From IMG/VR virus record IMGVR_UViG_3300030430_004473, positions 11,828 to 75,827 of that record: a stretch of DNA of 64,000 nucleotides; one strand, 5' to 3'. Source of the DNA: a virus. Of the stretch, positions 2-51,647 are shown one piece after another. The notes under the pieces are model-generated. The model was not told the origin of the DNA and ran no database searches. It worked only from the letters and a program-made list of their open reading frames with translations. Positions within the stretch are counted from its first letter, which is position 1. Each line of letters starts with the position of its first letter. The position numbers and the translations under genes were made by a program.

Positions 2-361
2 CTGGATCACAAAGAGCATAATTATTATAGTCAGACATGTCGAGCTTATTACAGAAGTAGTAAATATCCTTGTGTTACTTGTACTCAACCGCCAAAATTT
101 ATTTCTCATGATGATAATTCAATAGTCTATCCTACAATTCGAGAAATAGAGCTGATGATAGGTTTACCGGAAGGATATACATCAATACATAACGCATATT
201 ATAAACGGCTTCATAACATAGGAAATGGGTGGGATATTCCAACGATAGAGCATATCCTTCAAGACATCCAGGCTTTGCTGAAGAATAATAAATATCAAGC
301 TCGCAGACCTATCCAAATGCAGTTATTCAGAGATCCGGAGCTTGATTGTCAGATTGACTGA
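2..361 (+). CDS. C5-cytosine DNA methyltransferase, C-terminal part (5' end outside the window)
   Basis: The frame is open from position 2. PTIREIELMIGLPEGYT is motif IX-like and LHNIGNGW is motif X-like. QMQLF lies near the C-terminus. Confidence 0.75.
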   Translation: MDHKEHNYYSQTCRAYYRSSKYPCVTCTQPPKFISHDDNSIVYPTIREIELMIGLPEGYTSIHNAYYKRLHNIGNGWDIPTIEHILQDIQALLKNNKYQARRPIQMQLFRDPELDCQID

Positions 362-371
362 CTTCTAACTT

Positions 372-824
372 CTAACTTTTATCGTTGAGAAGTTTGAACA
401 ACTGATATGACTTTTCAAAGTGGCCACCAAGATGAAGAGAGTTTTTAGCTCTAGATCTAGAGTCATTGGTTTGAATGATTTCAACGATTTTAGCATTGAG
501 CTGGTTCTTTCTTCTGGTGCTCATTCCAACATAAACTTGGAATTCAGCTATAGTTTTGGTTCCTCTCTTACTGTTACATCTTTTGCAACAAGTGATGAGA
601 TTGTTAGCTAGATTGCTACCTCCCTGAGAATCCGGAACGATATGATCTAAAGATAAAGAATTCCAGAAGTCATTTCTTTTGATATTATCTTTCTCTATCT
701 GTGACTCAGACATGCCACAGTACCAGCACTTTCTTTGGTCTCGAAAGTAGATCGCTTGACGCTTTTCTCGCGCGATCCAGCTTCCAGCATGACGTTTTGC
801 TTTGCGATTTCTTTTTGTAGGCAT
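372..824 (-). CDS. HNH endonuclease
   Basis: RD..CWYCG ... LDHIVPDSQGGSNLANNLITCCKRCNSKRG is a classic McrA-type HNH signature. It has its own promoter and an AACAACGGAG leader. Confidence 0.9.
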   Translation of the reverse strand: MPTKRNRKAKRHAGSWIAREKRQAIYFRDQRKCWYCGMSESQIEKDNIKRNDFWNSLSLDHIVPDSQGGSNLANNLITCCKRCNSKRGTKTIAEFQVYVGMSTRRKNQLNAKIVEIIQTNDSRSRAKNSLHLGGHFEKSYQLFKLLNDKS

Positions 825-854
825 AATAAACTCCGTTGTTGTTAGTCATAATTT

Positions 855-883
855 ATTCTAACACAAAACGTATTACTATACAA
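855..883 (-). promoter_or_regulatory. sigma70-type promoter with palindromic operator
   Basis: Minus strand TTGTAT-17nt-TAGAAT. Operator TAATACGTTTTGTGTTA at 859-875. Confidence 0.65.
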
Positions 884-895
884 CAAAAAGAGAAT

Positions 896-1432: not shown

Positions 1433-1490
1433 AATATCCTCCGTTGTAAGTAATAAATAATATGTATTGTTGTATCTTTGCAGACAGCTT

Positions 1491-1700
1491 TCAAAATGGA
1501 ATTTTCAATATTTCTTCAGCTAGATATTTGGCTTTGTGTGCTAACGTCATAGCTTCGAGACTATTGAAATCCGGATCTACAAACTTGATATGCATGAAAA
1601 CGCATATTTCCGGTGTTAGTTCTTTGCGAAGTCCACCGGCTCGGTGAACCTTTTTCATCATTAAATAATGATCGATCAAATAAGAAATAGAATCTACCAT
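1491..1700 (-). CDS. hypothetical protein (likely start MVDSIS at 1700)
   Basis: ATG overlaps the stop of a 30-aa hydrophobic mini-ORF at 1694-1786. Confidence 0.5.
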   Translation of the reverse strand: MVDSISYLIDHYLMMKKVHRAGGLRKELTPEICVFMHIKFVDPDFNSLEAMTLAHKAKYLAEEILKIPF

Positions 1701-1775: not shown

Positions 1776-2999
1776 TTACGTTTCATCTTTCAGCTCTAAT
1801 TTGAAGTTATAATCTTGTATTCTATATGTATCTTTTATTTTGAGCTGTTGTTGAAATCTTTTGTAATCTACATGATGATGATACCTATTAAATTTCTTTG
1901 TTACAGTTACACAATCGGGATGTTGATCTTGTAGCGATTTAGCAAACAGATATCTATCATCATTGTCAGTATAAACTGAATCAGTGTTACCACCTTTCAT
2001 TCTCATAGAAGCTACTTTATCTCCCAAAAATGTAGCGAAGTTTATCGTGCAGAATCCGGCTTTTAAGATACGCAAACACAGATCTGTATCTTCATTGTAC
2101 CGGCCTCGCCAAAGCTTTCCGTTTATCTTTATTTGGTTGTTTATTTCTTTATTCATTAAGCTCATAGAATAGACTCTCGTATTCAAATAATACGGAGGAA
2201 TACAGAAGTCATTTTTACAAAGTCCTAGATGATACATGCCTGATATTCCTACATTCGTATATCTATCAGTAAAGTCCTCTACAGCTGCAAATATAGCTGG
2301 TGACTTCACACGATAAGAAATGTTATTGGTCATTCTCCAGAAGTATCGAATATTATCATCAAGTAACCAGTATTTTTGAGACGTTACATGATCATCAATC
2401 CAATTACGAACCGGAATAGAAGAAGCTGTTGTTGTATCAAAATCGCCAGTAATGACTCTATTTCCGTATATAGATTGATAGGGTTCTATTTCATTAGGTT
2501 CTACTACGATATAGAAGTCAACGCCCATCCACATTAAAGTTTGAGCAGTTAAACAAGTTTCAGCTCTTCCTTTGCTTATTATGTATATTGGATATCTAGG
2601 TTTTATATCATCAGAAGTATAAATATATTTGTTGATACCTTTTTCATGCTTGTCTTTTTTAGGATACCAGATCGATTTTGTTTTTTCTGTAATCGGTTGT
2701 TCAAAGAAGTCACTGAGCTGATCACAAGTGAAGTTTGTTTTAAGTTCTATATGATGATACGGATATACTTTGATTGATCGGTATTCTGGCATGTCGGTCC
2801 ACTCAAAATCATCACAATTAATTTCATAGTGTTTCTTTTCTCGATTATCTTTTTTGGCAGTAATGATCGTAGTATTGCCAAACAAATCCAGGCCGGTATT
2901 CATATCAACAGATCTATATTTGATTAGATCCATGTTTATCTTTTTAGAAATGCTTTCAACAGCTGAAATGCTATCAAATCTTACTTGTATCGTTCTCAT
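1776..2999 (-). CDS. GREB1-like / TET-associated (TAGT) GT-A fold DNA glycosyltransferase with fused N-terminal accessory domain
   Basis: PRYPIYIISKGRA, VVEPNE, RNWI, WLLDDNI, RVYS, WRGRYNEDTDLCLR, MKGGNT, RYHHHVDY. The likely start is MRTIQV at 2999 (GAGG RBS); the ORF track starts at 3110. Confidence 0.75.
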   Translation of the reverse strand: MRTIQVRFDSISAVESISKKINMDLIKYRSVDMNTGLDLFGNTTIITAKKDNREKKHYEINCDDFEWTDMPEYRSIKVYPYHHIELKTNFTCDQLSDFFEQPITEKTKSIWYPKKDKHEKGINKYIYTSDDIKPRYPIYIISKGRAETCLTAQTLMWMGVDFYIVVEPNEIEPYQSIYGNRVITGDFDTTTASSIPVRNWIDDHVTSQKYWLLDDNIRYFWRMTNNISYRVKSPAIFAAVEDFTDRYTNVGISGMYHLGLCKNDFCIPPYYLNTRVYSMSLMNKEINNQIKINGKLWRGRYNEDTDLCLRILKAGFCTINFATFLGDKVASMRMKGGNTDSVYTDNDDRYLFAKSLQDQHPDCVTVTKKFNRYHHHVDYKRFQQQLKIKDTYRIQDYNFKLELKDET

Positions 3000-3066
3000 A
3001 GTATCCTCATAAGAAAGTGATAGCCTAACGTATTGTAGGCTATCTGTTGTTGTTCTATTTAGAAGA

Positions 3067-3687
3067 TTACCACGGTTGATTATTTGCCCATTTGCGGATA
3101 TCTGCTCCACGAATACCGTATGTCATTTGATAATCAGAACCTTCAGTATATTCATCTTCTACTCTCATATATCCACCGTCTGCAGCTGATTTTGATTTCA
3201 TCCATTTTACATTTTCAAGTGCTTTATACAACCAGTGGAACCCCACACTGTACTGAAGATCATCCCATGAGTGGTTGTTTTCATCAGCATATAGTTCTAT
3301 ATATCCAGCTTCATCAAACGATACGTGATAGTGCTTAAAAAAAGCATTATCTATAAGATTTTGCTTTAGATCTTTTTGATTTAATCTTTTAATTTCTTTA
3401 TTCCAAACTTTTCCGACAAGTTCTTCTTTTTCATCATACCAACCATGTGTTCTTAAACCGGTTGGAACGTATGACCAATTATCTTTCTTAAAAACAGAAA
3501 AGACTACTGATAATTGTTCTTTTTCAGAAAGACTTTCCCACTTCTTTCTACTTTTCATGCTTTTCTTCTTTTCGTTTATTATTTTCACAAATTGATTGTG
3601 TTTTGTAACTATGTATTTGATGAGCTTGTTATATTCGCTCATTTTACCTATTTTGAAAGATCCCTTAGCTTCTTGATTACATGACAT
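3067..3687 (-). CDS. hypothetical protein
   Basis: 206-aa ORF with AACAACGGAG leader and promoter TTGACT-16-TATAAT (3730-3757). Confidence 0.75.
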   Translation of the reverse strand: MSCNQEAKGSFKIGKMSEYNKLIKYIVTKHNQFVKIINEKKKSMKSRKKWESLSEKEQLSVVFSVFKKDNWSYVPTGLRTHGWYDEKEELVGKVWNKEIKRLNQKDLKQNLIDNAFFKHYHVSFDEAGYIELYADENNHSWDDLQYSVGFHWLYKALENVKWMKSKSAADGGYMRVEDEYTEGSDYQMTYGIRGADIRKWANNQPW

Positions 3688-3760: not shown

Positions 3761-4285
3761 TTAATTTGCATTTATTTCAATATATTGATCTTTTTGATCG
3801 GTTTTTTGAAATATTCCAACATTATCTCCCCAATAACCAGATTCATCAATGTAGTATTCTATTAGTGATACGTCTGTATTCCACTTTGCTAGAGCAGGAT
3901 AGGCATCAGCTAAGAATCGCCAGCAATCACGATCCCAATGATACGATCCTCTACTCGGTGTGCATATATATATGTAACCTCCAAGCTTCGTTATTCGTAC
4001 CATTTCATTGAACGTAACCCAAAAAGCTTGATCGTGTTCAAACATAGAAGTAGAAACAACAACATCAATAGAAGATGTATTGATCGGATATTTATTGTGA
4101 GCTTCAACAACAATATCAACCCCTTCAGCTTGTCTTATATCTAGTGTTCTATAATTGTGTTCAGCGAAAAGATTTCTCAGATTTCCGTTTATGTCGGCCC
4201 CTCCGATATCAATTACTTCAAGGCCTGGCCGTGATAGGTACTTGTTTACGAATTTCGTTATATTATTTAGGGCAGTTGGGTGCAT
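3761..4285 (-). CDS. class I SAM-dependent methyltransferase (Methyltransf_11-like)
   Basis: VIDIGG SAM-binding loop, DVVVSTSMFEHD, GGYIYI, DCWRF. Confidence 0.85.
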   Translation of the reverse strand: MHPTALNNITKFVNKYLSRPGLEVIDIGGADINGNLRNLFAEHNYRTLDIRQAEGVDIVVEAHNKYPINTSSIDVVVSTSMFEHDQAFWVTFNEMVRITKLGGYIYICTPSRGSYHWDRDCWRFLADAYPALAKWNTDVSLIEYYIDESGYWGDNVGIFQKTDQKDQYIEINAN

Positions 4286-4345
4286 TGTAATACCAAAGTA
4301 ATAGGTTATGTGTTATAATATATAATGCAATAGGAGAACAAAAGC

Positions 4346-4966
4346 ATGAATAGTATAGATACAAATGAACATATATTGAACCGAGCTGACATGATCAATA
4401 TGATAGCTCAGAAGATCAAAGCAAAGTCCTATCTTGAAATAGGCGTTCAAACAGGCAAAACGTTTAACAACGTCAACATAACTGAAAAAGTAGGTGTCGA
4501 TCCAGATTCTCGTTGGGATAGTCAAACGCATTTAATGACTTCTGACTTCTTCTTTGAAACAAACAATCAAACTTTTGATATCATCTTTGTAGATGGCCTA
4601 CATGAATCAGAACAATGTTATAAAGATATACAGAACGCATTAAAATGCCTTAATTCTGGCGGTGTTATATTAGTGGATGATGTAGCACCAAAGAAGAAAG
4701 AATATCAGACTAGAGAGCCAACAGCTCTTCACTGGACCGGTGATGTTTGGCGAGCTTGGATCAAGGTTCGAAGAGTTTCAAGATATCATACAAAAACGTA
4801 TGATGTTGCTTTTGGAATAGGAATCATAGACACAAATGAAACAAACGCAGCTACTTACTGGAAAACAACAGACAATATAGATTATGATACGTTTCGATCT
4901 CAGTTCTTCTATGAATATTTGAATCTAGCAAGTGCAGAACAGTTTCAACGAGATTGGAATATATAA
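4346..4966 (+). CDS. class I SAM-dependent methyltransferase (Methyltransf_24-like, often sugar O-methylation)
   Basis: YLEIGV..G, GVDP, FDIIFVDGLH, LNSGGVILVDD, WTGDVW. Confidence 0.85.
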   Translation: MNSIDTNEHILNRADMINMIAQKIKAKSYLEIGVQTGKTFNNVNITEKVGVDPDSRWDSQTHLMTSDFFFETNNQTFDIIFVDGLHESEQCYKDIQNALKCLNSGGVILVDDVAPKKKEYQTREPTALHWTGDVWRAWIKVRRVSRYHTKTYDVAFGIGIIDTNETNAATYWKTTDNIDYDTFRSQFFYEYLNLASAEQFQRDWNI

Positions 4967-9356: not shown

Positions 9357-10003
9357 GGTAGTGCCATGACGATTTGATCACCTTTCTGTATTCCGTTAGA
9401 AATGCATGAATTACAAGTTCCACAAGCTACATAGTTATTATTTATTTTAAGAGGTTGATAGCAGGAAGAACAACATGAAAGAACATCAATCACAATGTGA
9501 TTAGAATCATGAAAAATTTCGTCTTTGGCTATATCCATCAAAGGAGCTTCGATCCGAACATTCCAATCATCAGCTATAGAGTTAATCTTTTTCAGAAACT
9601 CAGGCCGGCAATCAACATAATCAGCTACATCATCCAACACGGCCCCGTATTGAATAACATTAGCACCGTTACATACAGCTACATTTATAGCCATGTTGAG
9701 CATAATAGCGTTTCTATTAGGTACTACTCTAGATCCTGTGTTCCCACTTCCTATTTCCATAGATTTGGCATTGATAGGCAAGTATAGACTTTGATATTCA
9801 AATGTATCATCATAATAAGATATCAGTTTCTTATAGATCAAAAGACTCGCTAACTTTTCAGCTTCTTTTGCTGGATGATCATAATCTATATGAAGTAGTA
9901 GAGCTTTTCCACTCTTCAAAGAAATAGCATGTTGAAGTGCTAGAATCGTGCTATCGATCCCACCGGAGAAAAGGATAATCTTCTTTACTGTCATTTTTTC
10001 CAA
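9353..10003 (-). CDS. queC: 7-cyano-7-deazaguanine (preQ0) synthase
   Basis: FSGGIDST PP-loop, VPNRN, YVDCRPEF, SCY, CGTCNSC zinc site. Confidence 0.9.
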   Translation of the reverse strand: MEKMTVKKIILFSGGIDSTILALQHAISLKSGKALLLHIDYDHPAKEAEKLASLLIYKKLISYYDDTFEYQSLYLPINAKSMEIGSGNTGSRVVPNRNAIMLNMAINVAVCNGANVIQYGAVLDDVADYVDCRPEFLKKINSIADDWNVRIEAPLMDIAKDEIFHDSNHIVIDVLSCCSSCYQPLKINNNYVACGTCNSCISNGIQKGDQIVMALP

Positions 10004-10823
10004 GTCCTATATAGTCTGTGTCAATCAATAGCATTTCGTCATACGTTGATGAACAAATGCCAAAAATAGACAATCGTTGTTGTAGTGTTTTAAGTATTGT
10101 AAATGTTAGTTTTTCTTCTAAAAATAATGTAGTTTGTTTCTTCTTCATAGCAAAGTAATTAATGAATTTCTTATTGTGAGTAAGAAACTGAGTATAGCCG
10201 GACCCGTCTATGCTTTTTACTTTATGAGCTAGACAATACTTTAATCTTCTCATTGTGTTGACTCTACCAACATGGCACCATACATCATGTTCCATACATA
10301 AAGAAGATATCCACGGAATAGCTTCTAGTTTTGGTTCTGTTGTTCCACCTACGAAAATACCATATCCTCTACTAACAAAAGGAAGAAGATCGTCTTTGGT
10401 CATGCCATCTTGCCAAACAAGTAATAACTTCGTATCTAGATCTAGTTGTTCTAACCGATCAATCCACTCATCAGCTTGTTCCAGTGTTGCTTTGCTATCT
10501 CCTACTACATCAGGAATCGCAATCCAGTCAGCTCCGTTTCCTAAGTCTTTACACATGTTAATAAATCGATCTTCATCAAAGTCTGTTCCTTTGTTGTAAT
10601 CAATATAAGCACCGTTATCCAGGCCGTATCCTCTCAAGTTGATAGAATGAAGTAGATAGTCTTTTTTGTTCCAGAATTGTGGACTCAGTACAACACGCAT
10701 AGCCAAACGAGAAAACACTTTATGACGTTGAATATCATTCTTTCTATGTACTGAATGAATGAAAGATCCATACATAACAATGTTCATTTCTTTATAGATA
10801 TTATGATCGTCAGCTATTATCAT
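9951..10823 (-). CDS. DpdA-like TGT-fold DNA 7-deazaguanine transglycosylase
   Basis: LDNGAY, IPDVVGD, VWQDG, FVGG, HVGRVNT, SIDGS match TGT-barrel strand motifs. It sits directly upstream of queC-queE. Confidence 0.7.
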   Translation of the reverse strand: MIIADDHNIYKEMNIVMYGSFIHSVHRKNDIQRHKVFSRLAMRVVLSPQFWNKKDYLLHSINLRGYGLDNGAYIDYNKGTDFDEDRFINMCKDLGNGADWIAIPDVVGDSKATLEQADEWIDRLEQLDLDTKLLLVWQDGMTKDDLLPFVSRGYGIFVGGTTEPKLEAIPWISSLCMEHDVWCHVGRVNTMRRLKYCLAHKVKSIDGSGYTQFLTHNKKFINYFAMKKKQTTLFLEEKLTFTILKTLQQRLSIFGICSSTYDEMLLIDTDYIGLGKNDSKEDYPFLRWDR

Positions 10824-35777: not shown

Positions 35778-36116
35778 ATGACATTTGATGAATACGACCG
35801 AGAAGCTGAAAAAACAGCTAACTATCCTAGAGTGAACAACATAGGCCTTTGCTATGTATTTTTGGGCTTGGTTGAAGAAGCTGGTGAATGTTCTGGAAAA
35901 ATCAAAAAGATAATTCGTGATGAAGAAAGTATAGAAGTAGGAATACAGAAAAAGAAATATGATATCATCAAAGAGCTTGGTGATGTTCTATGGTACGTTT
36001 CAGCATGTGCTAGAGAAATCGGAACAGATCTAGAAACGATAGCCAAAGAAAATAATAAGAAGTTACAAAGTAGATATGAACGTGGTACGATAAAAGGAAG
36101 TGGTGACAACCGATAG
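35778..36116 (+). CDS. MazG-like nucleotide pyrophosphohydrolase
   Basis: LGLVEEAGE, KELGDVLWYV, N.KKL.SR..RG.I.GSGDNR. Confidence 0.9.
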   Translation: MTFDEYDREAEKTANYPRVNNIGLCYVFLGLVEEAGECSGKIKKIIRDEESIEVGIQKKKYDIIKELGDVLWYVSACAREIGTDLETIAKENNKKLQSRYERGTIKGSGDNR

Positions 36117-39546: not shown

Positions 39547-40239
39547 ATGAGTAATGTAGCAAGTGATCAAGTAAGATATGACTGGATAGATTCGTTGACA
39601 GAACGGCCTAACCTATCACCGGAACAGAGCGAAAAATTGAGGATCTGGATATGTGGTGAAATGAGTAAATATATCGGATCTAGAAAAACGTATCTATTAA
39701 AGAAGATAGTCAAAATGTATCCATCTTTAGTTTCAGCTGTCATGCTTGATTTGGCGGTGATAGTACAACGTGAAGAGCTGAAGGTACTTCGTAGAGAGCC
39801 TGGAGGAACACGTTGCGATTGTTGTGATCAATACGTTAAGGAATACAAAAGAAAGGTATCGAAAAACATGTGTGTATTTCTTCAATCACTTGTATTTCTA
39901 TCAATGAAGTCAAAAAGTCAGGGAAAAGGTGAATATGTTCACTTCAAAGAATGTGACTATCATAGTCATGACTATCCCTATGTTGTTCATTGGGGACTAG
40001 CTGAGCGTTCTGAAGAAGAACAAGGCATGTATAGACCTACTGATCTAGGAATAAAGTTTGCGTTTGGTAAATGCGAAATTCCGAAGTTTATCTATACATA
40101 CAACAATCATAAAACAGGAATAGATAAAACCGAAATGGTAAAGATAACAGATGTTCATAGTGAACGATTTGATCTTGAAGAAATGCTATCAAGTGTAGTA
40201 GAAGAATCGAATGTTATAGAATTGCGAGCTTCTGAATGA
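39547..40239 (+). CDS. hypothetical protein with CxxC and possible winged-helix C-terminus
   Basis: CDCCDQ...Y...HWGL...G.YRPT..G. Confidence 0.65.
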   Translation: MSNVASDQVRYDWIDSLTERPNLSPEQSEKLRIWICGEMSKYIGSRKTYLLKKIVKMYPSLVSAVMLDLAVIVQREELKVLRREPGGTRCDCCDQYVKEYKRKVSKNMCVFLQSLVFLSMKSKSQGKGEYVHFKECDYHSHDYPYVVHWGLAERSEEEQGMYRPTDLGIKFAFGKCEIPKFIYTYNNHKTGIDKTEMVKITDVHSERFDLEEMLSSVVEESNVIELRASE

Positions 40240-41345
40240 TGAAACTTGGCAGTTTGTTTTCTGGAATAGGTGGTTTTGAAATGGGCTTGAGTAAAGCTCT
40301 AACTTTCAAAACCGCTTTTCTATGTGATAACGATAAAGCTAACATATCATTACTGTCAAAGAGGTTTGACGATATACCAGTATATGATGATGTAAAGAAT
40401 ATCAATAAACAAACTGTAGATATGGATATAGATATTTTGTGTGGTGGTTTTCCTTGTCAAAATATTTCTATAGCAAATACTAAAACTAGAGACGGTCTAG
40501 CTGGGGCCAAATCTGGACTTTGGTTTGAAATGGTAAGAATCATAGAAGAATATAGGCCGGCTATCGTAGTTGTGGAAAATGTTCCAAATATCAGAAGTGT
40601 ATGCTTAAATGAAGTATTGATTACGTTGCATAACATCAATTATTCTGTTGAATGGGTAACGATATCAGCTGAACAGCTTGGGGCTCCTCATTTGCGTAGA
40701 CGTTGGTTTGCCGTTGCATATCCGAATCATGACAAAGAATTAGATTATTATTTTGAAAGAAATATAGAAATGAAAGAATACTGGAATGAAGAAGCTAGTG
40801 TATCTGAAATGATACCAACAAATGATATTGATATTAAATATCGAAACAAGCAAAGAACGAGAGTTGAACAGCTTGGAAATGCTATCGTGCCGGCATGTAG
40901 TGAGCTGATAGGACATTGTATAAAAGACAGTTTTCTGATATCTGGAAATAGATCCGTATTCCCGAGTAAAGCAAAAATAAACGCTCGAATCAGAAATAAT
41001 AGAATAATTAGCGATCAGCTGAATCTATGGAATACAGACAATGAATATTCAGAAGTACTACCACAAAACGGAAAAATGTTGAATGGTGTTCTATATGAGT
41101 CAAATGCAATATCATATACATTAGAACGCAAATACACAAAATCGTACTTCACCCCTTGCAAAGCTGACGGAAAAAGATTGAGTCATTGCGATTCTACTAT
41201 GACTTTTGACACGTTGTTAATGGATATGCTCAGAAAGTTAGGAACTACTGACGAGGATCGAATCAAATACAAGTACATGGTGAATCCAAACTTTGTAGAG
41301 TATATGATGAACTTCCCACACGACTGGACTAAAAATGAAGCCTGA
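40236..41345 (+). CDS. C5-cytosine DNA methyltransferase with atypical motif order
   Basis: LFSGIGG (I), GGFPCQ (IV), ENV (VI), RRRWF (VIII), LGNAIVP (X); IX-like NPNFVEYMMNFPHDWT at the very end. Confidence 0.9.
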   Translation: MMKLGSLFSGIGGFEMGLSKALTFKTAFLCDNDKANISLLSKRFDDIPVYDDVKNINKQTVDMDIDILCGGFPCQNISIANTKTRDGLAGAKSGLWFEMVRIIEEYRPAIVVVENVPNIRSVCLNEVLITLHNINYSVEWVTISAEQLGAPHLRRRWFAVAYPNHDKELDYYFERNIEMKEYWNEEASVSEMIPTNDIDIKYRNKQRTRVEQLGNAIVPACSELIGHCIKDSFLISGNRSVFPSKAKINARIRNNRIISDQLNLWNTDNEYSEVLPQNGKMLNGVLYESNAISYTLERKYTKSYFTPCKADGKRLSHCDSTMTFDTLLMDMLRKLGTTDEDRIKYKYMVNPNFVEYMMNFPHDWTKNEA

Positions 41346-42046: not shown

Positions 42047-42997
42047 ATGGGTTTGACAAAATTATCAAAAGAGAAATTAAGTAACAATCTTGATTTAGTT
42101 GTATCAGTAAGCGGAGGAAAAGACAGTACAGCTACATGTCTGTATTTGTTAGAAAACGGATATACAACGAATGATTTTGAAAGAGTATTTTTTGATACAG
42201 GCTGGGAATCCAAAGAAACGTATGACTATTTAGATTACTTAGAAACTAAGATCGGAAAGATCACACGATTAAAGAAACATGTCGATATTTCTCAATTTCC
42301 GAAAGAAACGCAACAAATGATTTTAGAAATTGAAAGTGATCTAGGTTTTGAAAGCCCGTTTGTAAGACTATGTTTCTATCATAAGTGTATGCCTAGTAGA
42401 TTTCGCAAGTGGTGTACTAGAAGCTTGAAACTAGAAGTAGTTAAAGATTATTTCGACAATCATGATAATGATGTAATATCTATCATAGGCGTTCGAAGAG
42501 CTGAAAGTAGAGCTAGAGCAAATGTAGAAGAATGGGATTATCATGATCATTTAGATTGTGATGTATGGAGGCCGTTATATCTATGGTCGGAAAAAGACGT
42601 AATTGATATACACAATAAGCATAATATTCTACCGAATAATTTGTATCTACAAGGAAGCTCGAGAGTGGGTTGCTATCCTTGTATTTATGCAAAGAAAAAA
42701 GAAATTTCTATTTTAAGTACAGAACGAATAAAAATAATTGAAAAATTAGAAAAGTATACTGGTATTCATACGAAAAAAACAACAAACACACAATCACAAA
42801 TTGAAAGATTAGAAGAAGTAAAAGAAAAATACGGATATTATTTCAATCAATTTTTTTCAAGAAAAGAACATGATCCTTTTTCTGAAGTTGTTCTTTGGAG
42901 CAAAACAACGCACGGTGGAAAACAATTTAAATTGTTTGATACAGACGAACCATCTTGTAGTAAATGGGGTTTGTGTTCAGTTTGGGAAAATAAATAA
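42047..42997 (+). CDS. PAPS-reductase-family (PP-loop, DndC-like) protein
   Basis: SVSGGKDS, FFDTGWE, RKWCTRSLK, GVRRAESRAR, RVGCYPC. Confidence 0.85.
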   Translation: MGLTKLSKEKLSNNLDLVVSVSGGKDSTATCLYLLENGYTTNDFERVFFDTGWESKETYDYLDYLETKIGKITRLKKHVDISQFPKETQQMILEIESDLGFESPFVRLCFYHKCMPSRFRKWCTRSLKLEVVKDYFDNHDNDVISIIGVRRAESRARANVEEWDYHDHLDCDVWRPLYLWSEKDVIDIHNKHNILPNNLYLQGSSRVGCYPCIYAKKKEISILSTERIKIIEKLEKYTGIHTKKTTNTQSQIERLEEVKEKYGYYFNQFFSRKEHDPFSEVVLWSKTTHGGKQFKLFDTDEPSCSKWGLCSVWENK

Positions 42998-43012
42998 CAA
43001 AAGGAGAGGATA

Positions 43013-43693
43013 ATGTCTACAGACGAATCAAGTCAGAAAAGCAGACATCTACAATTAAATCTTTGCAAGATATTGAACTTAGAAGAAGAAGAAGATTATA
43101 AAAAGATAAAGACAGATAATCTTACTCAGATAGGTTCGTCAGCTCATGCAGATAACGAAAGAGAAAAAAATGACTTCTATGCTACGCCACAATCAGCTGT
43201 AGTTAATTTCTTAAATTGTTATCTATACAGAGATAAAGAAGTGTTAGATAAAAATCTATGGGAATGTTCCTGTGGGGATGGTGCTATATCGAAGATTTTG
43301 GAAAACAACGGATATAATGTTTTTTCATCAGATTTGATAGATAGAGGATATGGAGAACAAAGCGATTTTATGACTTATCAAGAAAATGTTGGAGGTGGCG
43401 ACATAATTACAAACCCACCTTTCAAATTGATTCTTCCTTTCTTAGAACACGCAATCAAATTATTAGAAAATGGAAATAAGTTAATATTCTTAATGCGTCT
43501 ACTTTGTTTAGAAGGAAAGCAAAGAAACGAATTTTTTAAGAAACATCCAATTAAATATGTCTATATTCATACAACGAGAATAGCTTGTACTTTGCCTGAT
43601 GTTCAAACCAAACCAGTTACAGCGATAGCTTATGCTTGGTATGTATGGGAAAAAGGCTATGAGGGTGAAACTGTTATTCGTTGGTTGCCTTAG
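43013..43693 (+). CDS. DNA amino-methyltransferase (NPPF type)
   Basis: DFYATP, WECSCGDGAI, SDLIDRGYG, IITNPPF, YAWYVW. Confidence 0.85.
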   Translation: MSTDESSQKSRHLQLNLCKILNLEEEEDYKKIKTDNLTQIGSSAHADNEREKNDFYATPQSAVVNFLNCYLYRDKEVLDKNLWECSCGDGAISKILENNGYNVFSSDLIDRGYGEQSDFMTYQENVGGGDIITNPPFKLILPFLEHAIKLLENGNKLIFLMRLLCLEGKQRNEFFKKHPIKYVYIHTTRIACTLPDVQTKPVTAIAYAWYVWEKGYEGETVIRWLP

Positions 43694-43705
43694 AGGAATA
43701 GAACA

Positions 43706-44311
43706 ATGATACAATTACACAACAAAGATTGTCTGGAAGCTATGAAGTCAATGAAAACAGATCAATTTGATCTAGCTATTGTAGATCCGCCTTACGGAAT
43801 GCTCGAGGCCGGTATGCAAATGGGTGGAAAAAAAGGATCTTCTTTTCAACGTAAAGAAGTAAACAAATGGGATAAAAAGCCACCGAAAGAATATTTTGAT
43901 GAACTGTTTCGAGTATCAAAGAATCAGATTATCTGGGGTGGTAACTACTTCGGTCTACCACCTACGAGAGAATGTATTTGTTGGGATAAAAAGAATTGTA
44001 TGCCGTCTTTTTCACGTTGGGAAATGGCATGGACCAGCTTCAAAGGTGTGATGAAAATGTATGAACATATAAGTCAAAATCCAAATAGAATACATCCAAC
44101 ACAAAAGCCGGTAGCTCTATATATGTGGCTACTTAATACTTATGCAAAGCAGGGAGATAAGATCCTAGATACGCATATCGGATCTGGCAGTATTGCAATA
44201 GCTTGCCATGAGCTGAAGTATGATCTTGAAGGTTATGAAATAAATAAAAAATACTATCAGAAAACAATGTATAGACTCAAACAACATCAAAGACAATTGA
44301 AATTATTTTAA
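43706..44311 (+). CDS. DNA N6/N4 methyltransferase (beta class)
   Basis: DLAIVDPPY, HPTQKP, LDTHIGSGS. Confidence 0.92.
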   Translation: MIQLHNKDCLEAMKSMKTDQFDLAIVDPPYGMLEAGMQMGGKKGSSFQRKEVNKWDKKPPKEYFDELFRVSKNQIIWGGNYFGLPPTRECICWDKKNCMPSFSRWEMAWTSFKGVMKMYEHISQNPNRIHPTQKPVALYMWLLNTYAKQGDKILDTHIGSGSIAIACHELKYDLEGYEINKKYYQKTMYRLKQHQRQLKLF

Positions 44312-44325
44312 CGGAAATAACGAAC

Positions 44326-44934
44326 ATGATAAACATATACAATGAAGATTGTTTACAAGCTATGAAAAACATGAATGATAATAGTTTTGATCTAGCTATC
44401 GTTGATCCTCCGTTTGGAATTGGAAACTTTGTTCAAACTAGCGGGGCCAAACGTGGATCAAAAGTTGATTGGAATGATAACATTCCGACAGAAGAATATT
44501 TTTCAGAACTGAAAAGAGTATCAAAGAATAGAATCATATTTGGAGCAAATTATTTTAATTGCTTTGAAGAAAAATATGGAGCTATTATTTGGGTAAAAAA
44601 TCAACCCATGCCGGATTTTTCAAAGGCCGTGATTGCTTCATGCACTTTTCACAAAAAGATTGAAATATATGAACAAACATGGACTAACTTTGTAGCTAAA
44701 GGAAGAAGTACAAAACATCCTTGTGAAATGCCTGTTGGAATATACAAATGGATTTTGCGTAACTATGCAAAGCAAGGAGATAAAATATTAGATACTCACT
44801 TAGGCTCTGGTTCAATCGCAATAGCTTGTGATGATATGGGCTATTCGTTGGATGGGTACGAACTAGATACAGGATATTATGAAGAAGCTTGTAAACGATT
44901 GAAACAACATCAAAGACAATTAAAGCTCTTTTAA
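44326..44934 (+). CDS. DNA N6/N4 methyltransferase (beta class), tandem paralog
   Basis: DLAIVDPPF, HPCEMP, LDTHLGSGS. Confidence 0.92.
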   Translation: MINIYNEDCLQAMKNMNDNSFDLAIVDPPFGIGNFVQTSGAKRGSKVDWNDNIPTEEYFSELKRVSKNRIIFGANYFNCFEEKYGAIIWVKNQPMPDFSKAVIASCTFHKKIEIYEQTWTNFVAKGRSTKHPCEMPVGIYKWILRNYAKQGDKILDTHLGSGSIAIACDDMGYSLDGYELDTGYYEEACKRLKQHQRQLKLF

Positions 44935-45145: not shown

Positions 45146-46447
45146 ATGAACATAACAGAATATCGAACTGTAATGAATAGATATGAAGATAGCGAACGAA
45201 TCAAACAGATAGGCCCAGCTTGGACTTTTACAAATAGCGAATTCGTTGAGCTAGGTTGTAAAAGAAAATGGTCGTATGGTTATTTGATGAATATAGAAAC
45301 AACAGAAAAAGGAGACGCTCTTTTATATGGGATCGTTTGGCATGTAGTAATGGAACATGCATTATTAAGAATGAAGAATACAGATACATGTATAACCAAA
45401 GAAGAAGCTCTGGAACTGATTGAAATCGTAGGAAGAAAGTCTTTTGAAGAAGAACGTGAAGCAATACAAGTAATCGAAGAAGCTAAAGAAGAATGGATAG
45501 AAAACTGTTTGGATAGAATGAAAAGAGCTATCGTGGGTTGGTGCGATCATTGGGCTATACTTCATAAAGAATACGAAATCATAGCAATAGAGCAAACTCT
45601 AGCCAGGCCTATACTTCATCCTCAGACCGGTGAAATCTATAGTCCAAAGACATATATAATAGAAGAAGATGATTGTTTATATCCAGCTGGTATCAACAAA
45701 GAACGATCCAATTTGATTGATGTATGTATACCATACTGGAAAGTAGGAAAAGCTGACGCTATACTTCTCAAACGTGGAACAAAATCGCTTTATATACTAG
45801 ATCATAAGACAACATCACAACCTACTTCATACGAACGAAAGTTTTTATTTGATATGCAGTTATCTGGCTACTGTTCTCTACTTGATTACGAAATCAAACA
45901 TGGAGATATGACGTATTTATCAAAATATGAAGTCAAAGGTGTCATTTGGGATCTATGTCATAGCAAAGTGCCAAAACCACCGGAACCGTTAAAGTCCGGC
46001 AAACTATCAACAGCTAAGGCCAAACTTGTTCCGAGTTGGATCTATGAAGAATCTATTATCAAATATGAATTAGATCGAAGTGATTATGAAGAACATTTGG
46101 AAATGCTAAAGACCAAAGCAGATCCGAACTACTTCTGTTTTTTGATTACATCAATTAATGAAAATGACATGACACGATCTGTATTAGAAGATTATAGTAC
46201 AGCTTGCTCTATGCATGAACTGAAAACAAAACTTATCAATGCTGATAATATGACATTCCAATATACAGCTTCTAGGTATCCTATATGTCAACAATATCTC
46301 AGCTGTAAATATAGCTATTTATGTCAACCGAATGTAGCAATCGAAGATATAAATGAAACAATAAAGCACAAAATATATTGGAAAAAGATTGAAAATAATA
46401 CAGATTATGATATAATTAACTCAGACCAATTAGGTCTACCTTTCTAA
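45146..46447 (+). CDS. PD-(D/E)XK (Cas4/RecB-like) exonuclease
   Basis: CKRKWSY, GIVWH, GKADAI, ILDHKT, QLSGY, C-terminal C..C.Y..LC. Confidence 0.85.
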   Translation: MNITEYRTVMNRYEDSERIKQIGPAWTFTNSEFVELGCKRKWSYGYLMNIETTEKGDALLYGIVWHVVMEHALLRMKNTDTCITKEEALELIEIVGRKSFEEEREAIQVIEEAKEEWIENCLDRMKRAIVGWCDHWAILHKEYEIIAIEQTLARPILHPQTGEIYSPKTYIIEEDDCLYPAGINKERSNLIDVCIPYWKVGKADAILLKRGTKSLYILDHKTTSQPTSYERKFLFDMQLSGYCSLLDYEIKHGDMTYLSKYEVKGVIWDLCHSKVPKPPEPLKSGKLSTAKAKLVPSWIYEESIIKYELDRSDYEEHLEMLKTKADPNYFCFLITSINENDMTRSVLEDYSTACSMHELKTKLINADNMTFQYTASRYPICQQYLSCKYSYLCQPNVAIEDINETIKHKIYWKKIENNTDYDIINSDQLGLPF

Positions 46448-46463: not shown

Positions 46464-47180
46464 ATGTCTTTTAAGATAGAAAAAGCTTCCAAAGCTTCAA
46501 GTAATGCACCGATCAAGGCTTTGATATACGGTGATTCTGGTGCAGGAAAAACAACCCTAGCAGTTACAGGGCCTGGACCGGTTCTAGTACTATTAACCGA
46601 ACGTCAAGCGATTACATCAATCAACGCCTCCAATCCTGAGGCTGATATTATTTATGTCAATACAGCTCAAGATGTAAGAAACGTGATAGGAGCTTTGCGA
46701 AATGGTGATAAATCACTAGCAAAATATAAAACATTAGTAGTCGATTCTTTGACAGAAACACAACGATTAATTCAAGACGATATACTGAAAAAGGCTAGAA
46801 GAGATAGTATGCAATTGCAAGATTACGGAAAACTCGCAGACGCAACGAAAGGACTCATCAGAACACTGAGAGATCTACCTATCAACGTCATTTGTACCGC
46901 TCTTATGGAACACGATAACGAAGAAGCTACTGGAAAACGTCATTATAGTCCTATCTTTATCGGTAAGAAAACCGGTCGTGAAATCGCTCAATGGTTCACG
47001 ATAATAGGTTACTTGTATCGTAGGGATGTAAAAGAAGAAAACGAACGTGTTTCTCAAAGATACGTTATGTTTGATGGCCCTTCTACAGTACTTTGCAAAA
47101 TCGCAAATCCGTTAGAAGGTATCATTAAAGATCCAAAAATGGATAATATCATTCAATCAATTCAACAATACAAAGGATAA
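46464..47180 (+). CDS. AAA_24 / Sak4-like ATPase (recombinase)
   Basis: LIYGDSGAGKTT Walker A, LVVDSLT Walker B, QDYG. Confidence 0.85.
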   Translation: MSFKIEKASKASSNAPIKALIYGDSGAGKTTLAVTGPGPVLVLLTERQAITSINASNPEADIIYVNTAQDVRNVIGALRNGDKSLAKYKTLVVDSLTETQRLIQDDILKKARRDSMQLQDYGKLADATKGLIRTLRDLPINVICTALMEHDNEEATGKRHYSPIFIGKKTGREIAQWFTIIGYLYRRDVKEENERVSQRYVMFDGPSTVLCKIANPLEGIIKDPKMDNIIQSIQQYKG

Positions 47181-47189
47181 GGAGAAATC

Positions 47190-47816
47190 ATGCCAAAAAT
47201 AAATCCTTCTGATCATCAATCATCCAATAATGATCGGAGATCAACAGAACCAATGAAAGCAGGAAAGAAGATACTAGCACCAGCTTCGGCCTCTTTTCGA
47301 TACACAATGAATCAAGAACGATATTGCGAAATATTTTATGTTTGTTTGCACGATCTTGATAATAAAGAAAACGGTGATGTAGGTAAAACGATAAGTCAAC
47401 GATATCTATTAAGAGAATCGCATAACTGGAGATGGGCCGAACTAGCTGCCGTTTTAATGTATAGTGATGTATTCGATAATGAAGATCCCAAAGATGTTCA
47501 AGCTCTTCTCTTAAAGAATGGCAATCGTATCAAAGTAGATCTAGTAGATGATGAATATAACGGAAAGAAAAGACTACAAATGAGAAACTTATCAAAAGTA
47601 CTGAAAGACGGAAAAGTACCGGAATACACTGATAGCGAAGTCAAACATGTATCAGAAGCTGAAAGCAACTATGCAAAAGTCAATGAATACAGAATTGAAC
47701 AAGGCTGGACTACTGAAATACTTCCAAAATATCAAAAGAGTACATCAAATGAACCAGATGAAAATGATGATTGGGATATTCCTGATGATGATGATAATAA
47801 CGATATCCCCTTTTAA
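47190..47816 (+). CDS. single-stranded DNA-binding protein (DUF669-like)
   Basis: Follows the Sak4-like gene; EYNGK; acidic tail DDDDNNDIPF. Confidence 0.75.
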   Translation: MPKINPSDHQSSNNDRRSTEPMKAGKKILAPASASFRYTMNQERYCEIFYVCLHDLDNKENGDVGKTISQRYLLRESHNWRWAELAAVLMYSDVFDNEDPKDVQALLLKNGNRIKVDLVDDEYNGKKRLQMRNLSKVLKDGKVPEYTDSEVKHVSEAESNYAKVNEYRIEQGWTTEILPKYQKSTSNEPDENDDWDIPDDDDNNDIPF

Positions 47817-47829
47817 GGAATAAAGAAGA

Positions 47830-48402: not shown

Positions 48403-48431
48403 ATATCGCTGTTTTTTACAACGGAATAAAC

Positions 48432-48920
48432 ATGCAAGATCACGAATTTGTATTCAATGAATACAACAAGTATCGAAAACATATAAAGAAAAACAAGTCT
48501 GTCATATCAAACGCAAAGATTAAGAAAATCAAAGCAATATTAAAACAGACAACAAAAGACGATCTCATACTTCTATTTGAATATCTATCAAATAGCGAAG
48601 ATGATTATGTAAAGTTTATCAATGGTGATAATGAAGCTCAACGATTCTACGGAACACTTGATAATCTTTTCAGAAAATCAAAGATCAAAGAAAAAATCAG
48701 TAGAGCTAAGAAATGGAAATCTCTACAAAACAAAAATATTCCTACTCAAGATCTATTCATGCCTTTTATGTTGCTAGAAAAATCAGAAGTAGATAAATAT
48801 TATCAAAACGAATTCAACGAATACGAAGAATCAAGTGAAGAAGAAGAGCCCAACATAACACTCTCAAATCTTCAAATGTCTATCTTTGCTCAACAATCAA
48901 AGGACAACGAACAAAAATGA
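48432..48920 (+). CDS. putative replication-initiation/loader protein
   Basis: Directly upstream of the primase-helicase; F..G.N....Y.TLDNLFR resembles phage replisome-organiser C-termini. Confidence 0.45.
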   Translation: MQDHEFVFNEYNKYRKHIKKNKSVISNAKIKKIKAILKQTTKDDLILLFEYLSNSEDDYVKFINGDNEAQRFYGTLDNLFRKSKIKEKISRAKKWKSLQNKNIPTQDLFMPFMLLEKSEVDKYYQNEFNEYEESSEEEEPNITLSNLQMSIFAQQSKDNEQK

Positions 48921-50854
48921 AATGGTATGAACAAATCAACGAATCAGGAATCCATTCAGTAGCTTCAGCACTCGGCCTAACGATCAGAAAAAATATGATT
49001 ACACCATGCCCAGCTTGTGGAGCTGAAAAAAGAGGAACAAACGACAAACGACCTCCAATTGGTTTCATTAAGAACCTCAAAGGCTGGACTTGTCACAAAT
49101 GCAAAGCAACCGGCAATATTATCGATCTCATAGCATATACACTTCAAGATAAACGATACAGAGAACTACCTAAAGAAGATCGTAAAAAAGTAATGAACTG
49201 GGCTGAAGAAAACAAACTTTATATCAATCAACAAGCTGAAACATTCAAGAAAATAATCAGTACTTACAACCTCACCGATCAACAAGTACCCACAAACAAC
49301 ACACCCGAAGAATCAAATAGCCCTTTCAAATGGGAAAAAGATATACATCTTAAATATCATAACAATCTTTATGATATGCCCTTTGGCCTTCACGTTATTG
49401 AATACTTATACGATTATAGAAAGATCAAAGATAACGTCATACGAAAATTTCAACTCGGAGCTATGCTTGACCAATTTGATAATATTTGGATCGTCATACC
49501 ACTACGAAACAAAGAAGGTGAAGTTATAAATCTCAAATTCCGATCACTTCCCAAACAGGATGAAAAAAAGAAAATACGACACTGTAGCGGTCGACCTATG
49601 ACTCTATTTAATATAGATAACCTTGATCATCATTATGATACCAATATAATCATTACTGAAGGGGAATTTGATGTACTAGCATATCTATCAGCTAACCCAA
49701 ATGTAAACGTCTGTTCTGGTACTACGGGGGCCAAATCCAACTGGCCTGATGATTGGCTAGACGCTATCGAACCCTTTGAAAATATCTATATCAATTATGA
49801 TGATGATGAAACCGGTAAAGAAGGAGCTGATAAACTTTCATCAAAACTCGGAAAAGAAAGATGTTACAAAATGAAATGCGATACATACAACGACTTCAAT
49901 GAATACATTATGAATAATGAGGAAACGAAATGGCTTGATGATATTCAAAAGTTTATAAACAAAGCTGTATCCTTTCAAGAACATATTGCTCTCAAAACCG
50001 TAAGCGACTATCTTGATGAACTCGAAGATCTTATATCAAATCCTCAACAACTCAGAGGACTCAAAACTTCATCCGCTAGAATAGATTCATGTGCCGGTGG
50101 CATAGGGGCCGGCTTATGGGTTATCACCGGTGACACAGGACACGGTAAAACAACATGGGCCACCTTTGAATGTTGGTATCAAGCTCAACAAGGCGTTCCT
50201 ATCATGCTAACCTCTTTCGAACAATCTCCAATCGGAACATGTCAAAAACTTCTCAGGTGCCAACTCGGGCAGGACTTCACAAAAGTATCTAAAGAACAAC
50301 GAAGAACAGCTATGAACCAACTCGGAGCTATGCCTCTTTATATCCTCGATCAATATGGAAACGCTCTACTACAAGATATCATATCCTCTATTAAATACGC
50401 TCAAAGAAGATACAACATCAAAATAGCACTTATCGATCATCTAGGTTTTCTCATAAATACAGACCAAAACACTGATGAACGCAGAGAAATAGAAGCTGCT
50501 GTTAGAGAACTCGCCACCATAGCTATCGCTTCTCAACTAACTATATTCCTCATATGTCACCCTAATAACCTTTCAAACGTGCAACAACGCAGAGTTAAAA
50601 TATCTGACCTCAAAGGTGCTTCAGCAATAAAACAAGACGCTCACGTTGGGGTAGTAGTACAACGTCAACCTATAACAACAGAAAGACCATACCCAACAAC
50701 TACTCTATTCTTTGATAAAGTTAGATCCGAATTCGGGCAAGCAGGCTCCCACTGTACTCTAGCTTTCGATCCCATAGCATGTGTTTATAAAGATGAATGG
50801 GTATCCACACCAGCTGCTCAAAGAGGGGCCAAAATAATCGTACCAAATAAATAA
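48917..50854 (+). CDS. primase-helicase (T7 gp4/Twinkle-like)
   Basis: Zn finger CPAC...CHKC, TOPRIM ITEGEFD and YDDDETG, Walker A GDTGHGKT, IDHL, LKGASAIKQ. Confidence 0.92.
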   Translation: MKWYEQINESGIHSVASALGLTIRKNMITPCPACGAEKRGTNDKRPPIGFIKNLKGWTCHKCKATGNIIDLIAYTLQDKRYRELPKEDRKKVMNWAEENKLYINQQAETFKKIISTYNLTDQQVPTNNTPEESNSPFKWEKDIHLKYHNNLYDMPFGLHVIEYLYDYRKIKDNVIRKFQLGAMLDQFDNIWIVIPLRNKEGEVINLKFRSLPKQDEKKKIRHCSGRPMTLFNIDNLDHHYDTNIIITEGEFDVLAYLSANPNVNVCSGTTGAKSNWPDDWLDAIEPFENIYINYDDDETGKEGADKLSSKLGKERCYKMKCDTYNDFNEYIMNNEETKWLDDIQKFINKAVSFQEHIALKTVSDYLDELEDLISNPQQLRGLKTSSARIDSCAGGIGAGLWVITGDTGHGKTTWATFECWYQAQQGVPIMLTSFEQSPIGTCQKLLRCQLGQDFTKVSKEQRRTAMNQLGAMPLYILDQYGNALLQDIISSIKYAQRRYNIKIALIDHLGFLINTDQNTDERREIEAAVRELATIAIASQLTIFLICHPNNLSNVQQRRVKISDLKGASAIKQDAHVGVVVQRQPITTERPYPTTTLFFDKVRSEFGQAGSHCTLAFDPIACVYKDEWVSTPAAQRGAKIIVPNK

Positions 50855-50873
50855 CAAAGAACAGGAAACTAAC

Positions 50874-51647
50874 ATGAAATTATTACATGGTGATTGTCTT
50901 GAACTGATGAAAAACATTGAAGATCAAAGTATCGACATGATTCTATGCGATCTTCCTTATGGTACTACAGCTTGTAAATGGGATACTGTAATACCGTTTG
51001 ATCTTCTTTGGCACCAATATGAACGAATTATTAAAACAAATGGAGCTATAGTTTTGTTTGGTCAAGAGCCTTTTTCTTCTCATCTCAGACTAAGCAACTT
51101 AAATCTTTATAAATATGATTGGATATGGAAAAAGTCTAACCCATCAAACATAGCACTAGCTAACAAACAACCTATGCGATATCATGAACTCATATCTGTA
51201 TTCTATAAAAAACAACCAACCTATAACAAACAAATGATTCAAAGATCTGAAAATGGATCTAAAGCTATAAAAACACAACAAAAAAGCGGTAAACCATTTG
51301 TAAATAGACGCAGTGAACAAACAGGACTTAAACATATTGAAATAGATCCTAACAAATATAACACAAAACTCAAAAATCCATCTACCATATTAGAATTTAA
51401 CTCTTTACGCCCTACATCTAAAGAATTCGTAAAACATCCAACTCAGAAACCAATATCACTACTTCAATATCTCATTCTTACATACACAAACGAAAATGAA
51501 ATTGTATTGGATAATTGCATGGGTAGTGGAAGCACTGGTATAGCTGCATACAATCTTAAACGTCAATTTATCGGTATCGAAAAAGATAACACCTACTTCA
51601 ATCTTGCAAAAGAACGTATTCAAGATCATCAATGGAAACTATTCTAA
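50874..51647 (+). CDS. DNA N6/N4 methyltransferase (beta class)
   Basis: ILCDLPYG, HPTQKP, LDNCMGSGSTG. Confidence 0.92.
   Translation: MKLLHGDCLELMKNIEDQSIDMILCDLPYGTTACKWDTVIPFDLLWHQYERIIKTNGAIVLFGQEPFSSHLRLSNLNLYKYDWIWKKSNPSNIALANKQPMRYHELISVFYKKQPTYNKQMIQRSENGSKAIKTQQKSGKPFVNRRSEQTGLKHIEIDPNKYNTKLKNPSTILEFNSLRPTSKEFVKHPTQKPISLLQYLILTYTNENEIVLDNCMGSGSTGIAAYNLKRQFIGIEKDNTYFNLAKERIQDHQWKLF

Follow-up and report, generated by a model that had tools for sequence, protein, structure and literature searches.

The window analysed here is a 64,000-nucleotide stretch of viral DNA comprising bases 11828-75827 of the 75,827-base IMG/VR record IMGVR_UViG_3300030430_004473, which is rated complete by CheckV. 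Pfam and PHROG scans indicate a siphovirus-type genome (terminase, portal, major head protein, tail tube and a 1727-residue tape measure) that also contains a DNA-modification and replication block, and near-identical sequences were found only in marine metagenome runs, from many studies. Our subject is a set of short peptides on the DNA-acting proteins of this phage which resemble the motif used by bacterial proteins to dock on the sliding clamp DnaN (the β-clamp), for which the Dalrymple consensus is QL[SD]LF or QLxLx[LF]. A first-pass annotation had listed ten such peptides and proposed that most of the DNA-modifying enzymes are tethered to the replisome through them. All ten are encoded exactly where that annotation placed them, and five have support beyond their mere presence: the tails of four DNA methyltransferases and of an exonuclease. 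L-numbers below (L014, L038, L042-L050, L060 and L061) denote IMG/VR loci.

Between 40.2 and 51.6 kb the genes run in the order C5 cytosine DNA methyltransferase #2, an unknown protein, a PAPS-reductase-like enzyme, a PHROG 799 DNA methyltransferase and the N6/N4 methyltransferases MTa and MTb, followed by a PD-(D/E)XK exonuclease, an AAA_24 ATPase, a single-stranded DNA-binding (SSB)-like protein with a DIPF end, a RuvC-like protein, a small protein, a Toprim-DnaB primase-helicase and the third N6/N4 methyltransferase, MTc. MTa (43706..44311, + strand, 201 residues), its paralog MTb (44326..44934, +, 202 residues) and MTc (50874..51647, +, 257 residues) share a PF01555 domain which ends at about residue 186 of 201, 188 of 202 and 247 of 257, respectively (in MTc it covers residues 20-247). 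In each the domain stops roughly 10-15 residues short of the C-terminus, and the motif forms the last five residues of the protein: QLKLF in MTa (44294-44308) and MTb (44917-44931) and QWKLF in MTc (51630-51644). The fourth enzyme, C5 cytosine DNA methyltransferase #1, enters the window as its C-terminal part (2..361, +); the full gene (G000:C1:11202-12188) encodes 328 residues, PF00145 accounts for residues 1-299, and QMQLF (314-328; residues 314-318) lies inside the 29-residue tail beyond the domain. The QLKLF tails of MTa and MTb and the QLGLPF tail of the exonuclease are exact matches to QL[SD]LF/QLxLF or QLxLx[LF], while the peptides of MTc (QWKLF), C5 methyltransferase #1 (QMQLF) and the PAPS-reductase-like enzyme (QFKLF) have the form Q-hydrophobic-x-L-F. 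With their flanks, the candidate clamp-binding peptides of the phage are HQRQLKLF, DHQWKLF, RPIQMQLFRD, GGKQFKLFDTDE and NSDQLGLPF.

The distribution of the motif among the proteins of the phage is uneven. A Fisher test of the kind proposed in the first-pass annotation was positive, with Qxx[LI][FW] present in 9/16 DNA-acting proteins versus 3/98 others (P = 3e-7). A per-residue binomial test of the same contrast gave P = 5e-5, or P = 1.5e-4 with one of the paralogs MTa and MTb dropped, and shuffling of the DNA-acting proteins by themselves yielded an expectation of 1.65 matches (P = 2e-4). Six matches in DNA-acting proteins lie no more than 25 residues from the C-terminus, compared with none in other proteins. 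Exactly at the C-terminus, Qxx[LI]F was seen three times against 0.05 expected (P < 0.0005 in shuffles) and QLxLx[LF] once against 0.006 expected. QueC, QueD and QueE, reported earlier to be free of such motifs, are indeed without them and serve as a negative control.

At the DNA level MTa and MTb share 63% identity, but their 12-residue protein tails, RLKQHQRQLKLF, are identical, with synonymous differences at three of the five motif codons (TTG/TTA, AAA/AAG and TTA/CTC). An identical tail written in different codons points to selection on the peptide rather than to a recent copy; gene conversion was considered and rejected on the same three codons, although a run of 20 identical nucleotides is found shortly before the motif. 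The MTa ortholog in L042, a 96%-similar relative, is 90% identical and keeps the QLKLF tail. In the same relative a different, 411-residue PF01555 enzyme replaces the PAPS-reductase-like enzyme, the PHROG 799 methyltransferase and MTb, and this replacement also ends in QMKLF. Comparison of L042:3341-5190 with window positions 42047-44934 shows a cassette exchange within the methyltransferase island; the 411-residue protein and the PHROG 799 methyltransferase have their first 12 residues, MSTDE(S/T)SQK(S/R)RH, in common, which looks like a recombination junction. P0260, the closest homolog of C5 methyltransferase #1 (49% identity), carries QIQLF at an equal distance from its C-terminus (10 residues), amid diverged flanks; of 150 representative C5 enzymes, a few more end in QLTIF, SSLF, KSIF or QEVLPL.

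The MTc family shows the tail intermittently. Among 119 clusters of MTc homologs (56-88% identity), 12 end in [LIM][FW], for example QSSLF, QMELF, QDTLF and QTKLF, and four more end in QLELPL, QLQLPL, QLSLNI or QVDLNL; most of the clusters stop directly past the last helix. Tails of this kind recur in 10-23% of members without being universal. In 59 IMG/VR loci such ends were found on 11/48 methyltransferase homologs versus 6/773 other open reading frames (ORFs) of at least 100 residues (P = 8e-11), and one of these six is an ortholog of the exonuclease. The tailed homologs occur in unrelated phage backgrounds. Such a pattern, which comes and goes on a dispensable methyltransferase tail, is typical of a short linear docking motif. 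Beside methyltransferase homologs in unrelated IMG/VR phages we also noted a DUF488 protein ending in QKTLF (L038:6391-6915) and a 129-residue unknown protein ending in QQNLF (L014:5440-5829).

The first-pass annotation had found no polymerase or clamp gene in the window, and this holds for the complete genome: neither a DnaN-family clamp nor a polymerase of family A, B or C was detected in it with PF00712, PF02767, PF00476, PF00136 and PF07733, each of which worked on control genomes. The replication set of the phage itself consists of a primase-helicase (48917..50854, +; PF13155 and PF03796, Toprim plus DnaB_C), which is its only replisome enzyme, and recombination proteins. Since the complete genome lacks both polymerase and clamp, its copying would fall to the Pol III holoenzyme in the replisome of the host, and host DnaN is the likely clamp target.

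To model the proposed interaction, we used Escherichia coli DnaN, as a stand-in for the host clamp, together with residues 160-201 of MTa, in three runs and with three controls. An ipSAE interface score of 0.73 was obtained in 3/3 runs, compared with 0.00 for the best control, a level that is also reached by 51/78 solved complexes and by 2/108 mismatched pairs. The contacts agree 100% between runs and the partner has a predicted local distance difference test score (pLDDT) of at least 65. Residues Gln197-Phe201 of MTa contact β-clamp residues 172, 174-177, 242, 247, 320, 344, 346, 360 and 362-365, the residues of the cleft between domains II and III in which DnaN is known to receive its peptide ligands. 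The modelling on DnaN proposed in the first-pass annotation accordingly placed the tail in the canonical pocket. As many clamp-peptide complexes have already been solved, the result shows a likeness to clamp ligands which may come from the memory of the predictor.

In our view, it is fairly probable, given this model and the pattern of conservation, that MTa, MTb, MTc and C5 methyltransferase #1 dock on a clamp, and the phage probably methylates its own DNA at the replication fork. We infer binding from the presence, position, distribution and recurrence of the tails together with the complex model. The tails would enter the hydrophobic cleft of host DnaN that lies between its domains II and III, and the tethered methyltransferases would ride clamps loaded on, or left on, nascent phage DNA, which would then be methylated at once, ahead of the host restriction enzymes. 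Several points weigh against this interpretation. The total number of Qxx[LI][FW] matches in the whole 114-ORF proteome, 12, is at the chance level (8.5 ± 2.8 in within-protein shuffles, P = 0.15), and the raw count is therefore uninformative; the boundary of the DNA-acting class was drawn after the Pfam and PHROG annotation was known. The tail is missing from most homologs in the methyltransferase family, and the PF01555-like proteins of the distant syntenic relatives L044 and L050 are without it. Position 2 of the MTc motif is a tryptophan, off the consensus, and the linker between the last helix and the motif is just 8-12 residues or so. Finally, the clamp in the model was that of E. coli, standing in for the host clamp.

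Two further proteins of the block carry motifs that may join the same docking system, and each has a good alternative reading. The first is the PAPS-reductase-like PP-loop enzyme (42047..42997, +, 316 residues), in which QFKLF occupies 42923-42937 (residues 293-297). PF01507 covers residues 17-213 (E = 2.7e-24), with SGGKDS in the alignment consensus, and the best Foldseek matches are CysH and APS reductases (probability 1.00, template-modelling score 0.62-0.67 by target). More than 1000 relatives were found at E <= 1e-10, and the family has five invariant cysteines (Cys123, Cys209, Cys212, Cys304 and Cys310 here). The enzyme lacks the ECGLH of CysH at its C-terminus and has P[ST]CxKWG[LM]C in its place. 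Judged by its predicted fold and by its position among phage DNA methyltransferases, it is a relative of CysH and not its equivalent; the invariant cysteines and the P[ST]CxKWG[LM]C segment suggest a site for a metal or Fe-S cluster, with chemistry unlike that of sulfate assimilation. In the CysH family the catalytic cysteine is located on a C-terminal arm.

The motif of this enzyme is a family-wide feature: Q[FYLM]x[LM][FL] is present in 118/120 homologs (41-59% identity), in the context W[SA]xT..GG[KR]Q..LF-D..P[ST]CxKWG[LM]C, where Gln, Leu and Phe are near-invariant, a hydrophobic residue fills position 2 and position 3 varies freely. On balance, we favour slightly a structural or catalytic role over docking. 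QFKLF would then be a part of the enzyme, on a C-terminal arm whose invariant cysteines pack on the PP-loop core beside a metal or Fe-S site or catalytic cysteine, much like the mobile ECGLH tail of CysH. The CysH/APS-reductase-like fold is in keeping with such an arm, and the conservation of QFKLF is far above that of the come-and-go methyltransferase tails. It is placed between invariant Trp284, Gly290 and Gly291 on one side and Cys304, Trp307, Gly308 and Cys310 on the other, and the AlphaFold2 model (mean pLDDT 94) builds residues 291-300 at a pLDDT of about 76 as coil with a β-bridge instead of leaving them disordered. However, this is also the internal segment of lowest confidence in the model, and the conservation pattern is that of a clamp motif, with Gln, Leu and Phe fixed, a hydrophobic residue at position 2, at least 12 different residues at position 3, a Gly-Gly before the motif and an acidic residue after it. 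Were it a true clamp motif, the whole uncharacterized family would act on clamp-loaded DNA.

The second is the PD-(D/E)XK (Cas4-like) exonuclease (45146..46447, +; PF12705, PHROG 1218), which ends exactly in QLGLPF (46427-46444). Its homologs (36-57% identity) end in QISLPF (three cases), QLGLPF, NFKLPF, QQKLPF, TQLPF, KALF or KPLF after diverged linkers; 11/17 have an ..[LI]PF or ..LF end, and residues 420-433 of the AlphaFold2 model have a pLDDT below 50. The tail is a real, conserved and disordered motif. It also resembles the C-terminal tail of SSB (DDD[IL]PF), and mimicry of that tail by Q[LI]xLPF, and possibly by the other ..LPF ends, is a reading to which we give a little less than even weight. 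The exonuclease would in that case dock on proteins that read SSB tails, either the AAA_24 (Sak4-type) recombinase ATPase encoded next to it (46464..47180, +; PF13479, without a motif and syntenic in L042-L050) or host partners, and an exonuclease-annealase pair comparable to λ Exo-Beta would result.

Three observations make docking on the AAA_24 protein a serious rival to clamp binding. In L044 the last residues of the exonuclease ortholog are DDDLPF, which comes very close to a perfect SSB tail. The exonuclease tail and the SSB gene are complementary in some relatives: in L044 and L045 the exonuclease is tailed and the slot after AAA_24 contains no SSB ORF, whereas in L048 and L050 the exonuclease lacks a tail and an SSB with an ELPF or SIPF end is present. 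In phage HK620, the last six residues of SSB are needed for the binding and stimulation of Sak4 (PMC5928155), and here the exonuclease ends in LPF-COOH with a Sak4-type gene adjoining. In addition, the phage encodes a probable SSB-like protein of its own (47190..47816, +) that ends in DDDDNNDIPF; it was assigned from its place after AAA_24 and from its acidic ..IPF tail, with no Pfam or PHROG match. Across the relatives the ..LPF/..LF tail of the exonuclease and the ..[IL]PF tail of SSB tend to be alternatives, but this phage and L042 have both, so that one does not simply replace the other.

The residues preceding LPF speak for the clamp. Glutamine at position 1 and leucine or isoleucine at position 2 are found in 7/11 of the tailed exonuclease homologs (QISLPF, QLGLPF and QQKLPF), which fits QLxLx[LF], and SSB tails are without the glutamine; the Hda-type clamp motif is QLSLPL. 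The phage's own end, NSDQLGLPF, has a single acidic residue near the motif, although other homologs have Glu/Asp-rich linkers ahead of Q[IL]SLPF. From these sequences, SSB-tail mimicry appears to fit about as well as a clamp motif, with the conserved glutamine and Leu/Ile favouring the clamp.

A third alternative concerns the methyltransferases themselves, whose tails might bind a hub other than the clamp (the primase-helicase, the SSB-like protein, AAA_24 or an unrecognized clamp-like protein) or serve as a degradation or folding signal. The phage has no clamp gene by genome search and many of its proteins have no family assignment; C-terminal hydrophobic ends are used in other systems too, the ligands of T4 gp45 being an example. 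This reading is nevertheless unlikely, as QLKLF is letter-perfect for QLxLF and is modelled in the canonical DnaN cleft, and the same tails on methyltransferase homologs in unrelated phage backgrounds favour a universal host partner. The unknown 230- and 236-residue proteins of the module were considered as cryptic phage clamps and rejected on their likeness, in one case to a winged-helix protein and in the other to a peptidoglycan-binding or lysis protein. That all of the motifs, the C-terminal ones included, reflect chance or phylogenetic inertia without function draws on the shuffle-level proteome count and on the paralogy of two of the three exact C-terminal cases, but is very improbable and strongly disfavoured by the exact C-terminal placement, the identical MTa/MTb tail despite synonymous divergence, the recurrence on the unrelated replacement enzyme of L042, the enrichment in the methyltransferase family and the conservation of the exonuclease tail past diverged linkers.

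Chance is nonetheless the best explanation for about half of the listed motifs. Because 1.65 chance matches are expected in the DNA-acting set, we read QTTLF, QLNLW, QLNLC, GLDLF and QMSIF in this way. In the DpdA-like transglycosylase (9951..10823, - strand; PHROG 15826/887), QTTLF is internal (10122-10136, residues 230-234) and falls in a lineage-specific, helical-looking C-terminal region; PHROG matches and tblastn matches to phage DpdA-like proteins cover residues 66-217 only, no relatives spanning the motif were found, the cultured-phage matches stopping at residue 217, and a PDB sequence search with the protein gave chance matches only. C5 methyltransferase #2 (40236..41345, +; PF00145 at residues 2-203) has an internal QLNLW (41016-41030, residues 261-265) which is kept in the sole relative found, but this is a 92%-identical twin (L042/L061) and retention therefore says little. 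The 'NPPF' DNA methyltransferase (43013..43693, +; PHROG 799 at residues 26-226) has an N-terminal QLNLC (43052-43066) which ends in cysteine and directly follows the 12-residue N-terminus common to the 411-residue enzyme of L042, and the GLDLF of the TET-associated glycosyltransferase (TAGT) is without the glutamine; both peptides are outside the clamp-binding consensus. The QMSIF (48873-48887) of the small protein encoded ahead of the helicase (48432..48920, +) is likewise without support: its orthologs in L043-L049 are 113-139 residues long and align to residues 2-119 only, and the motif lies in an acidic extension unique to this phage, which all six orthologs lack. An internal QLTIF in the helicase, which was not on the earlier list, was rejected as a motif, being part of a conserved core strand, ITI[FMVL]L[IV]CH, with a glutamine that is not conserved in six orthologs; it illustrates what a chance match looks like.

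The earlier statement that most of the DNA-modifying enzymes carry such motifs is accordingly overstated. Four of the nine (MTa, MTb, MTc and C5 methyltransferase #1) have a well-supported tail; the motif of the PAPS-reductase-like enzyme is family-wide and may be part of the fold; and the DpdA-like protein, C5 methyltransferase #2, the NPPF methyltransferase and TAGT have internal or imperfect matches at the chance rate. The description of the motifs as lying in tails or linkers outside the catalytic folds is sound for the four methyltransferases and the exonuclease; the unlisted QLTIF of the helicase lies inside the fold. Conservation in homologs was likewise found for MTa/MTb, C5 methyltransferase #1, the exonuclease and the PAPS-reductase-like enzyme; in the MTc family it is recurrent rather than universal, and QMSIF is not conserved. 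What stands is that several unrelated DNA-acting enzymes have tails beyond their catalytic domains in which peptides like the clamp-binding motif occur, and that these tails recur or are conserved in homologs. In its broadest form, the proposal would have peptides for docking on the host clamp present on four or more unrelated folds (the β-class amino-methyltransferases, the C5 methyltransferase, the PP-loop enzyme and the Cas4-like exonuclease) as a clamp 'tool-belt' by which phage DNA is modified and processed at the fork, with the family-wide Q[FYLM]xLF of the PAPS-reductase-like enzymes as a true clamp motif; taken as a whole, this is doubtful.

Elsewhere in the genome, QueC, QueE and the DpdA-like gene are on the minus strand at 8.7-10.8 kb, QueD is at 51662-52102 and TAGT (PF20691) is at 1776-3110 (-). 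No TET/JBP gene was recognizable in the scans run, despite the presence of the TET-associated glycosyltransferase. Two class-I S-adenosylmethionine (SAM) methyltransferases and a 925-residue multi-GT-A glycosyltransferase were also observed (with TAGT: 1776-3110 (-), 3761-4966 and 10919-13696), and none of these or TAGT has a clamp-like tail. The RuvC-like protein, between the SSB-like protein and the small pre-helicase protein, was assigned from its N-terminal motif alone. A MazG-type nucleotide pyrophosphohydrolase gene (35778-36116) lies among tail and host-recognition genes and is conserved in L048 and L049. An ORF matching PHROG 7245, 'anti-restriction protein' (L060:3-800, -), runs off the low end of the record, its profile match stopping 44 positions before the profile end, and a minus-strand ORF (63806-64000) enters at the high end. 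Opening of the assembly at this point may have divided a single gene into these two ORFs, as would be expected of a complete genome with circular permutation. Megablast of the 40-52 kb region against cultured phages gave zero matches, a search for related loci with the helicase alone found none, and a profile scan of genome contigs with the exonuclease alignment yielded neither prophage relatives nor a host. No tRNA genes were found in the window.

The bacterial clients of the β-clamp (Pol II, Pol III α, Pol IV, Pol V, MutS, MutL and Hda) have the same consensus as the phage peptides, frequently placed, as in the phage methyltransferases, on a flexible tail at the very end of the protein, and bind in the same domain II/III cleft in which the MTa tail is modelled. 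They differ in being polymerases and repair proteins, whereas here the clamp of another organism would be used by DNA methyltransferases of a phage, with a PP-loop enzyme and a Cas4-like exonuclease as possible further users. A precedent for such use is MuC of phage Mu, which exploits host DnaN through a clamp-binding motif (10.1101/2025.01.04.631326; PMC12867686) in a phage that, like this one, has no clamp of its own. MuC is a transcription activator, in contrast to the several DNA-modifying enzymes of a single genome described here. In eukaryotes DNMT1 is tethered to PCNA via a PIP box (QxxLxxFF), and methylation follows the fork, a textbook case of coupling to replication. This is also a DNA methyltransferase on a sliding clamp, but the likeness is an analogy of mechanism and not homology, with another clamp, another motif and a role in the maintenance of hemimethylated sites. 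In phage T4, the gp45 ligands gp43, gp33, gp55 and ligase have C-terminal clamp-binding peptides (PMC2988020, PMC6212786), so that several phage proteins share a common terminal docking peptide; T4 encodes its own clamp and polymerase, and this phage encodes neither. The SSB tail differs from that of the exonuclease in its protein context and in lacking the Gln and Leu/Ile conserved at positions 1-2 as in clamp motifs.

In the literature searched, we found no paper in which DNA methyltransferases of bacteria or phages, or PAPS-reductase-like enzymes, are described with clamp motifs, and to our knowledge replication-coupled methylation through a sliding clamp has not been described in bacteria or phages. 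If the methyltransferase tails do bind host DnaN, the race between self-protection and host restriction would be solved by tethering the protective enzymes at the fork, and the recurrence of such tails on phage methyltransferases would be explained. The tails would also supply a sequence rule by which DNA-acting enzymes could be spotted among unknown phage proteins, including the widespread PAPS-reductase-like family, and would add to the known phage proteins a class whose members compete for the clamp of the host.

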